A DNA stretch of 32,000 nucleotides, from assembly GCF_000012925.1 (NCBI RefSeq), contig NC_007517.1:780001-812000 (forward strand), read 5' to 3'. The position numbers and the translations under genes were made by a program. The notes below the pieces were generated by a model. The model was not told the DNA's origin. It did no database searches and was given only the letters and a program-made list of their open reading frames with translations. Positions 16,481 through 16,779 of this stretch are shown one piece after another; the first letter of the stretch is position 1; every line of letters starts with the position of its first letter. Origin of the DNA: Geobacter metallireducens GS-15 (lineage in GTDB: Bacteria > Desulfobacterota > Desulfuromonadia > Geobacterales > Geobacteraceae).

Positions 16481-16779
16481 AACACGGAGCAACGGAGCAC
16501 ACGGAGAAATCAAAAGCAGAAAAAAGGGCTATCAGGCAGGAATATAGCTGGTTGCTTGTGGCAGGTGATTCGCTCTTGTTTTACTCCGTTGCTCAGTTGC
16601 TTGTATGTTTCAGTAACCGGTTATATGTTCTCCAGAATTGGACACGACAGCTTGGTCGTTGCTTGGGCCAATTGAGCCCGTCACAGAGCGTAATGCGTCG
16701 TGTCCATCTTTCCTCAACCCGAACGGTTGCTTGGGCCGAAACGAGCCCGAATTTTCGCAAGAAAGGGACTGGAGAGAAT
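16481..16779 (+). ncRNA. Candidate IS110 bridge (guide) RNA region in the left-end leader
   Basis: There is no plausible ORF. An 11-nt long-range pairing joins GAGCAACGGAG (16487-16497) to CTCCGTTGCTC (16584-16594). GTTGCTTG occurs 4 times (16551, 16596, 16658, 16726). Two ~23-nt repeats GTTGCTTGGGCC..GAGCCCG each contain a GGGC/GCCC mini-hairpin. ACGGTTGCT (16723-16731) is identical to the right end (17753-17761). RNA ends and strand are not determined. Confidence 0.3.

Follow-up and report, generated by a model that had tools for sequence, protein, structure and literature searches.

The transposase gene that starts at position 16780 of the window (the whole 32-kb stretch of Geobacter metallireducens DNA analysed here) is preceded by non-coding DNA in which the hexamer GTTGCT recurs. 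The locus raises the question of whether this DNA encodes a bridge RNA and, if so, which part of it does and what DNA the RNA would read. A preliminary description had proposed that a ~300-nt leader (16481-16779) of an IS110-family element encodes such an RNA. The five leader copies of GTTGCT that it listed are present, four of them reading GTTGCTTG and the one at 16588 reading GTTGCTCA. In a pattern search the hexamer is found on the + strand at 16551, 16588, 16596, 16658, 16726 and 17756, and inverted at 16488-16493. There is no window-wide enrichment (12 copies against 11.9 expected in 32 kb); six of the 12 lie inside 244 nt, where ~0.09 would be expected pro rata, so the local clustering is real.

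The gene downstream of this region places the element in its family.

16780-17736, + strand: transposase / bridge recombinase gene, 318 aa (Pfam, PDB sequence search)
16772-16777, + strand: SD-like GGAGAG before the transposase gene

The protein matches Pfam DEDD_Tnp_IS110 (PF01548; 2e-27, 96 bits) and Transposase_20 (PF02371; 7e-21, 75 bits), and so has the N-terminal DEDD RuvC-like domain and the C-terminal Tnp domain with a catalytic Ser that mark the IS110 family. In a PDB sequence search it has full-length matches to the two bridge recombinases of known structure, ISCro4 (the best, 3e-41) and IS621 (1e-37), and the family assignment of the preliminary description is borne out. Residues D11, E55, D97, D100 and S235-G236 align with IS621 D11, E60, D102, D105 and S241-G242, which are essential in that protein (PMC11208158); by this alignment the catalytic set of the recombinase is shown to be intact.

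The ends of the element were defined from other copies, a comparison that the preliminary description had proposed. A genome search found 14 copies in the same genome, 99-100% identical over ~1.16 kb, and when they are anchored on internal seeds the spacing of the end seeds is constant (1,125 nt) in all 14. The only sequence common to the 14 copies runs from 16596/16602 to 17761; identity begins at GTTGCT|TGTATGTT.. (window 16596/16602) and stops at ..GAGAACACGGTTGCT (17761), and the DNA upstream is different at each copy. Position 16596 is the start of the GTTGCT common to both junctions and 16602 is the first element-specific base; since GTTGCT lies at both junctions, the boundary is ambiguous within 16596-16601 / 17756-17761. 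With exchange at the CT core, the element is as follows.

16602-17761, + strand: ISGme8 (IS110 family), 1,160 bp (14-copy comparison)

The supplement of PMC2700814 lists ISGme8 as an IS110-family element with 14 rows (ISGme9 belongs to the IS481 family), and the window element is therefore ISGme8; 16602-17761 is a copy of this IS110-subgroup insertion sequence of G. metallireducens. It has the long non-coding left end upstream of the gene (178 nt, 16602-16779) and the short right end (25 nt, 17737-17761) of that subgroup. All 14 copies occupy the same position and orientation in ..GTTGCT|CYGTG.., with the CT core at both junctions and with neither terminal inverted repeats nor target duplication, and the empty target sites are continuous across the junction position. 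Thus the leader is 178 nt long and not ~300 nt; the element starts ~115 nt later than had been thought, and 16481-16595 is host DNA at the 14-copy comparison. The preliminary description had made its reading depend on the true ends not excluding the repeat region, and in fact about 40% of that region falls outside them and the remainder inside.

The DNA that flanks ISGme8 consists of two arms of a host repeat, the second of which is interrupted by the element.

16478-16506, + strand: arm A of a host class 1 repeat, AATAACAC-GGAGCAAC-GGAGCACA-CGGAG, octamer repeats outside the IS; similar units at many IS-free loci
16507-16583, no strand: variable spacer between the host repeat arms, with GTTGCT at 16551; its length and sequence differ at all 14 copies
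16584-16601, + strand: arm B of the host repeat, left part, CTCCGTTGCTCAGTTGCT, the left target (LT), with the CT core at 16600-16601 (14-copy comparison, empty sites)
17762-17768, + strand: arm B of the host repeat, right part, CCGTGTT, the right target (RT) (14-copy comparison, empty sites)

In G. metallireducens, 48 "class 1" sites have been described as tandem octamers of consensus GTTGCTYN in inverted pairs at variable distance, and ISGme8 or ISGme9 was reported to be inserted "at a fixed distance" from such sites (PMC2700814). The arms at this locus match these paired tandem-octamer sites, and the same arms are found as pairs at loci without any IS; 16478-16601 is a host inverted pair of octamer-repeat sites of which ISGme8 splits one arm. 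This bears directly on a further part of the preliminary description, in which 16481-16779 was seen as one ~300-nt structured RNA whose 5′ domain is closed by an 11-bp helix and in which GTTGCT marks both IS termini. Positions 16487-16497 are indeed complementary to 16584-16594, and folding of 302 nt that include the host arms gives a stable structure (-108 kcal/mol, z -3.5), but the helix joins two host repeat arms and closes no RNA domain. Nothing is common to the 14 copies upstream of 16596, the upstream arm and spacer vary in sequence and length, the same arms are paired at IS-free loci (also PMC2700814), covariance-model matches (below) start only at 16620, and in the circular form the left end (LE) is preceded by the right end (RE) and not by host arm DNA. 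A single ~300-nt RNA therefore has next to no chance of being correct, and the 302-nt fold as an RNA domain is ruled out by the 14-copy comparison, host-arm DNA not being common to the copies. The hexamer does mark the right terminus (17756-17761); its inverted copy at 16488-16493 is not an IS end by the same comparison.

The flanks of the copies define the target. The left flank is ..CTC[A/C]GTTGCT in 14/14 copies and the right flank is C[C/T]GTGTT.. in all of them. The string GTTGCTCYGTG occurs 33 times in the genome, where 4.7 would be expected by chance; these comprise 13 right junctions of the IS, 17 empty repeat sites and three other, unrelated occurrences. The 17 uninterrupted sites read ..GTTGCTC[CT]GTGTT.. 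(..CTCNGTTGCTCNGTTGCTCYGTGTTATT). Two ISGme8 copies lie head to head ~80 nt apart (G000 C1:58087-60536), a single host repeat pair holding one of them in each arm. Two further IS-free host repeat sites (G000 C1:2836575-2836611, + strand, and C1:209230-209264, - strand) read ..GTTGCT and then TGTATGTTTCA(GT); where such sites usually have CYGTGTTTCA, these have the opening 11-13 nt of the ISGme8 left end, and both fit footprints of a copy that was lost via deletion between the GTTTCA of the left end and the GTTTCA of the repeat right flank. The resemblance of these two sites to footprints of lost copies is what might be expected if the RNA gene and recombinase were relics of a system that spread its copies in the past and is inactive now. 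However, the 99-100% identity of the 14 copies over ~1.16 kb, their intact ORFs and catalytic residues and the 17 matching empty sites that remain all speak against such a history, and we give it very little credence.

The 178-nt left end was compared with those of related elements. A scan of a genome collection found 76 orthologous loci from many phyla (34-63% protein identity), and 36 orthologous leaders were aligned with that of the window (37 leaders) for RNAalifold and explicit pair counts. RNAalifold returned a covarying basal stem of a first module, and basal and distal stems of a second module; the distal hairpin of the first module was added by hand before pairs were counted. Pairing extends to 90.3% of cells in the resulting four helices of the 37 leaders and falls to 35-48% when partners are slid by 1-3 columns. 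Of the 24 pairs, 20 show changes on both sides, and 0/500 shuffles reach any observed measure. Both-sided changes affect 11 of the 12 pairs of helix 1 across orthologues, and helices 3 and 4 are 93-95% paired, with double changes of the CCC/GGG to CUC/GAG type.

16620-16783, + strand: bridge RNA region, the extent of the covariance-model match (models R2 and R1)
16640-16705, + strand: target-binding loop module, with basal stem 16640-16648/16697-16705 plus 16650-53/16693-96 and distal hairpin 16665-68/16676-79
16718-16767, + strand: donor-binding loop module, with basal stem 16718-20/16765-67 and distal hairpin 16733-36/16745-48

Positions 16640-16767 have the two-loop architecture of published bridge RNAs (PMC11208160, PMC11208158), with two internal loops, bounded by stems and each carrying a distal hairpin, that are conserved and covarying. 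Folding with homologous sequences, as the preliminary description had suggested, thus yields a conserved two-loop structure, and its main claim, that the leader encodes a bridge RNA, is upheld by this covarying structure, by a leave-one-out covariance model and by the joint variation of guides and DNA across orthologues described below. The model built from the 36 orthologues with the window left out (R2) matches 16620-16783 with 89.1 bits (E 5e-26); it has no further match below E 0.06 in the 32 kb and none in 16481-16619. A model that includes the window (R1) scores it at 105.7 bits and matches exactly the 14 copies in the genome. Two other, single-copy IS110-family transposase genes are present (G000 C1:3158728-3159171, - strand, and C1:2912213-2912641, + strand; 57 and 49 bits to PF01548), and neither has an ISGme8 RNA model match beside it. 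A search of 16300-17900 against Rfam 15 at E up to 10 gave no hit beyond noise such as snoRNA/miRNA models. The two ~23-nt repeats that the preliminary description had pointed out are found at 16658-16680 and 16726-16749, where they agree in 12 + 7 bases around a GGGC/GCCC hairpin. Target hairpins of the GGGC/GCCC type also occur in several orthologues, so that there is no need to suppose that the donor loop was recently copied into the target loop. In the minimum-energy fold a 13-pair helix (16622-16635/16769-16782) encloses the whole bridge RNA and covers GGAGAG and the AUG; this predicted helix suggests translational masking of the transposase in read-through transcripts.

In the published model of bridge RNA recognition, left guides have the top-strand sequence of the left half-sites, right guides have the complement of the right half-sites, every pairing includes the core, and the donor is the RE-LE junction (PMC11208160). 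The corresponding segments of the two loops of ISGme8, and the donor, are these.

16655-16663, + strand: left target guide (LTG), GUCGUUGCU; in orthologues this column block equals the left flank, up to 9/9
16682-16688, + strand: right target guide (RTG), CACAGAG, complementary to CT+CTGTG
16723-16731, + strand: left donor guide (LDG), ACGGUUGCU, which repeats the final 9 nt of the element
16758-16761, + strand: core of the right donor guide (RDG), CAAG, the complement of CT+TG where the left end begins
17753-17761, + strand: left donor (LD), the right terminus ACGGTTGCT, with the CT core at its end

The guides of the target loop match both target half-sites including the core, and those of the donor loop match both element ends. 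The RTG matches 7/7 the commonest right flank, CTCTGTG (7/14 copies and 14/17 empty sites), and 6/7 the variant CTCCGTG that forms the right flank of the window copy. The LDG matches the right end (17753-17761) at 9/9 positions, and the identity of ACGGTTGCT at 16723-16731 with 17753-17761, seen already in the preliminary description, is confirmed. The RDG matches CTTG at 4/4 positions, a short pairing (4 nt), and GCAAG at this place is conserved in orthologues. The LTG matches the left flank with its GTTGCT at 6/9 positions, or 7/9 at three copies with TCC; the mismatch comprises its three 5′ positions, one of which could form a U-G wobble, and the match is weaker than in many orthologues. 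One idea is that a 1-nt bulge in LT would lengthen the LTG pairing (UC, skip, GUUGCU against TCAGTTGCT), and something similar could be drawn for the orthologues L032 and L059. The suggestion that the GTTGCT-type segments are guides or donor-matching parts holds in this scheme for three of them, 16658 in the LTG, 16726 in the LDG and 17756 at the donor end, but not for the others: 16588 and the inverted copy at 16488 are host octamers, 16551 is in the host spacer and 16596 is the junction hexamer.

Guides and DNA have changed together in the orthologues. ACAGTTG is found in both LDG and LD, and an A-to-G change of the window and L058 is present on both partners; paired LDG-LD changes occur in L021, L058, L066 and L090, and the rare LD variants ACGGTTG, ACAACTG, ACAGTCG and ACAGCCG are mirrored in the LDG. 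Likewise the RDG and the left end have changed together in L055 (CUAG with CT|AG) and L066 (CGAG with CT|CG). In multi-copy orthologues, whose ends are exact, the same columns match differing flanks; for example, LT GCCCGCT is accompanied by LTG ..GCCCGCU and RT CTTCGCG by RTG CGCGAAG. When all orthologues with usable flanks are counted at non-core positions only, mean LTG-LT identity is 4.48 of 7 (2.33 shuffled), RTG-RT identity is 4.50 of 5 (1.50 shuffled) and LDG-LD identity is 6.94 of 7 (6.38 shuffled), and for each of the three 0/10,000 shuffles reach the observed value. This guide-flank covariation is the strongest evidence, as far as sequence comparison goes, that the loops would read DNA. 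It also weighs against the simpler idea that the leader is only a 5′ UTR that exerts translational control of the transposase mRNA (e.g., by sequestering the SD and AUG) and recognises no DNA. The pairing of 16622-16635 with 16769-16782 over GGAGAG and the AUG in the minimum-energy fold is what such a UTR might show, and ISPpu9 was at one time suggested to have a regulatory small RNA (cited in PMC11208160), but control of translation predicts neither four unpaired segments that match the flanks and the element's own ends nor their joint change with this DNA across 30+ orthologues. We find a UTR role with no DNA recognition very improbable; a UTR role as such and a bridge-RNA role are not exclusive of one another.

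If the left end encodes a bridge RNA, its promoter might be sought across the joined ends, as described for IS110 elements, where the promoter is split across the two ends (PMC11208160).

17741-17746, + strand: -35 hexamer TTGACT in the 25-nt right end
16604-16609, + strand: -10-like hexamer TATGTT in the left end, paired with the -35 only after circularisation

Joining RE to LE (17761 to 16602) gives TTGACT-17 nt-TATGTT, a promoter reconstituted, as a motif, across the circle junction; among 35 elements (the window copy and 34 orthologues), 22 have a -35 with at least 5/6 matches to TTGACA equally far from the right end. There is no sigma-70-like site upstream of the leader in the integrated state. 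A promoter motif that exists only across the joined ends, with none upstream when integrated, fits the split IS110 promoter and the weak bRNA expression of integrated IS621 copies (PMC13626964), and, judging by these motifs, the main source of the bridge RNA is most likely the excised circle, where alone the promoter is complete.

Taken together, it is very probable that the 178-nt left end of ISGme8 encodes a two-loop bridge RNA that reads the host octamer site and the joined ends of the element, that the recombinase acts at the CT core and that the RNA comes mainly from the circle promoter. In this mechanism the target-binding loop, with guides GUCGUUGCU and CACAGAG, would read the host octamer-repeat site ..GTTGCT|CTGTG.., and the donor-binding loop, with guides ACGGUUGCU and CAAG, would read the joined circular ends ..ACGGTTGCT|TG.. 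The DEDD/Ser recombinase encoded downstream would exchange strands at the CT core, so that all copies would end up in one arm of a host repeat pair, at an identical position and in an identical orientation; transcription would occur mainly in the excised circle, from the -35 TTGACT of the right end and, 17 nt on, the -10 TATGTT of the left end. Transcription of the RNA, its binding to the recombinase and its guidance of recombination we infer from IS621 and ISCro4.

The closest described mechanism is that of IS621 of E. coli (IS110 subgroup; 177-nt bridge RNA; PMC11208160, PMC11208158). The two elements are alike in the full-length recombinase match (E 1e-37) with identical DEDD and Ser-Gly residues, in the location of the RNA-coding sequence upstream of the gene, within the left non-coding end, in two internal loops whose 5′ guide has the sequence of the left half-site top strand and whose 3′ guide is complementary to the right half-site, in a CT core, in a promoter split across the RE-LE junction and in the use of a repetitive extragenic element as target. 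They differ in that protein identity is only roughly one third, the RTG has 4 nt in IS621 and 7 nt in ISGme8, the ISGme8 donor is ACGGTTGCT|TGTATG, and the target is the E. coli REP in one case and a tandem-octamer repeat in the other; in ISGme8, moreover, the left halves of target and donor share 7/9 bases. ISCro4/IS622 (PDB 9t56; bioRxiv 10.1101/2025.05.14.653916) is the best PDB match (E 3e-41, residues 6-316) and has the same domain order, but has another host and target; it was compared by protein alignment only. ISPpu9/ISPpu10 of Pseudomonas putida (PMC12288879; bioRxiv 10.64898/2026.03.19.712850) are, by description, also multi-copy IS110-family elements at one position in a host intergenic repeat, but ISPpu9 has its sRNA gene downstream of the transposase. 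Elements of the IS1111 subgroup share the transposase family and the principle of RNA guidance; their seekRNA is downstream of the gene, whereas ISGme8 has its structured RNA upstream and only 25 nt past the stop codon. The IS1111/seekRNA layout (downstream guide RNA and subterminal inverted repeats) is not that of ISGme8. A plasmid tblastn search found relatives of up to 53% identity (Sinorhizobium 53%, Klebsiella 49%, ISEc32 45%) and no IS621 locus among its matches. Judged by sequence, ISGme8 has every feature by which a bridge system of the IS110 subgroup is recognised.

The cataloguing of ISGme8 and of its association with octamer sites dates from 2009 and the description of the mechanism class from 2024, and ISGme8 is otherwise an ordinary example of that class. 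What is new is the ISGme8 guide map, the clade-wide covariation and the rereading of the "fixed distance" as RNA-guided targeting, which explains the fixed distance of ISGme8 from GTTGCTYN class 1 sites better than an IHF/HU-linked effect does. The map is an exact and testable guide-to-target assignment for a natural bridge recombinase of a deltaproteobacterial metal reducer, and it adds an orthologue clade from many phyla with a 7-nt right target guide.

The 7/9 likeness of the left half of the target, TCAGTTGCT, to that of the donor, ACGGTTGCT, is the highest among 29 orthologues, and the right halves are also alike (target CTGTGTTTCA, donor TGTATGTTTCA); the integrated junctions are for this reason near-substrates. 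It could be imagined, although we think it rather unlikely, that the ISGme8 target mimics the element's own donor junction with effects on excision, rearrangement and the origin of class 1 sites. If this were true, the left junction after insertion would be a near-cognate donor for the donor loop, and for the target loop the right junction would equal a virgin site as a target. One bridge RNA could then drive excision in an efficient insertion-like geometry, in contrast to IS621, in which insertion and excision are biased by geometry and the cross-loop geometry is disfavoured (PMC13626964). Repeat-to-repeat rearrangements could be promoted, and the 48 "class 1 global regulator sites" of G. metallireducens could have been shaped by, or derived from, IS110 donor ends. 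Recombination at half-matches has been reported in the literature, and given this and the IS621 geometry bias the donor-target likeness may, speculatively, bear on excision efficiency. With donor and target half-sites that are nearly identical, ISGme8 naturally lends itself to testing what sets the insertion/excision bias in bridge recombination.

Several smaller features accompany this copy and its relatives. In this copy only, GGTTGCTTGT in the host spacer (16551-16560) equals 10 nt of the RE-LE circle junction (..GGTTGCT|TGT..) and may be a remnant or due to chance. A terminator-like hairpin of 8 pairs, GAACACGG-TTGCT-CCGTGTTC, is formed by the end of the IS together with the target flank (17749-17769); it is followed in this copy by a T-run and lies just past the transposase stop. 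One half of the hairpin is contributed by the host repeat, and the hairpin would thus be formed anew at each insertion. A similar RE/flank palindrome is present in some orthologues (L033, L049) and absent in others. The host supplies exactly 342 codons of an MBL-fold hydrolase ORF (17717-18787, - strand) before the IS is reached; in a reconstruction of the empty site this ORF would stop after ..GTRSN (344 aa), and with the IS it is 356 aa long, running 12 residues further into the right end. Finally, in a Blastocatellia MAG (JANNYF01) the orthologues L059 and L063 are inserted in a repeat of reiterated CTCTGTG units (..CTCTGTGTCT|TGTATG), with RTG CACAGAG in L063 and CGCAGAG in L059, and a similar type of target is thus used in a distant phylum.
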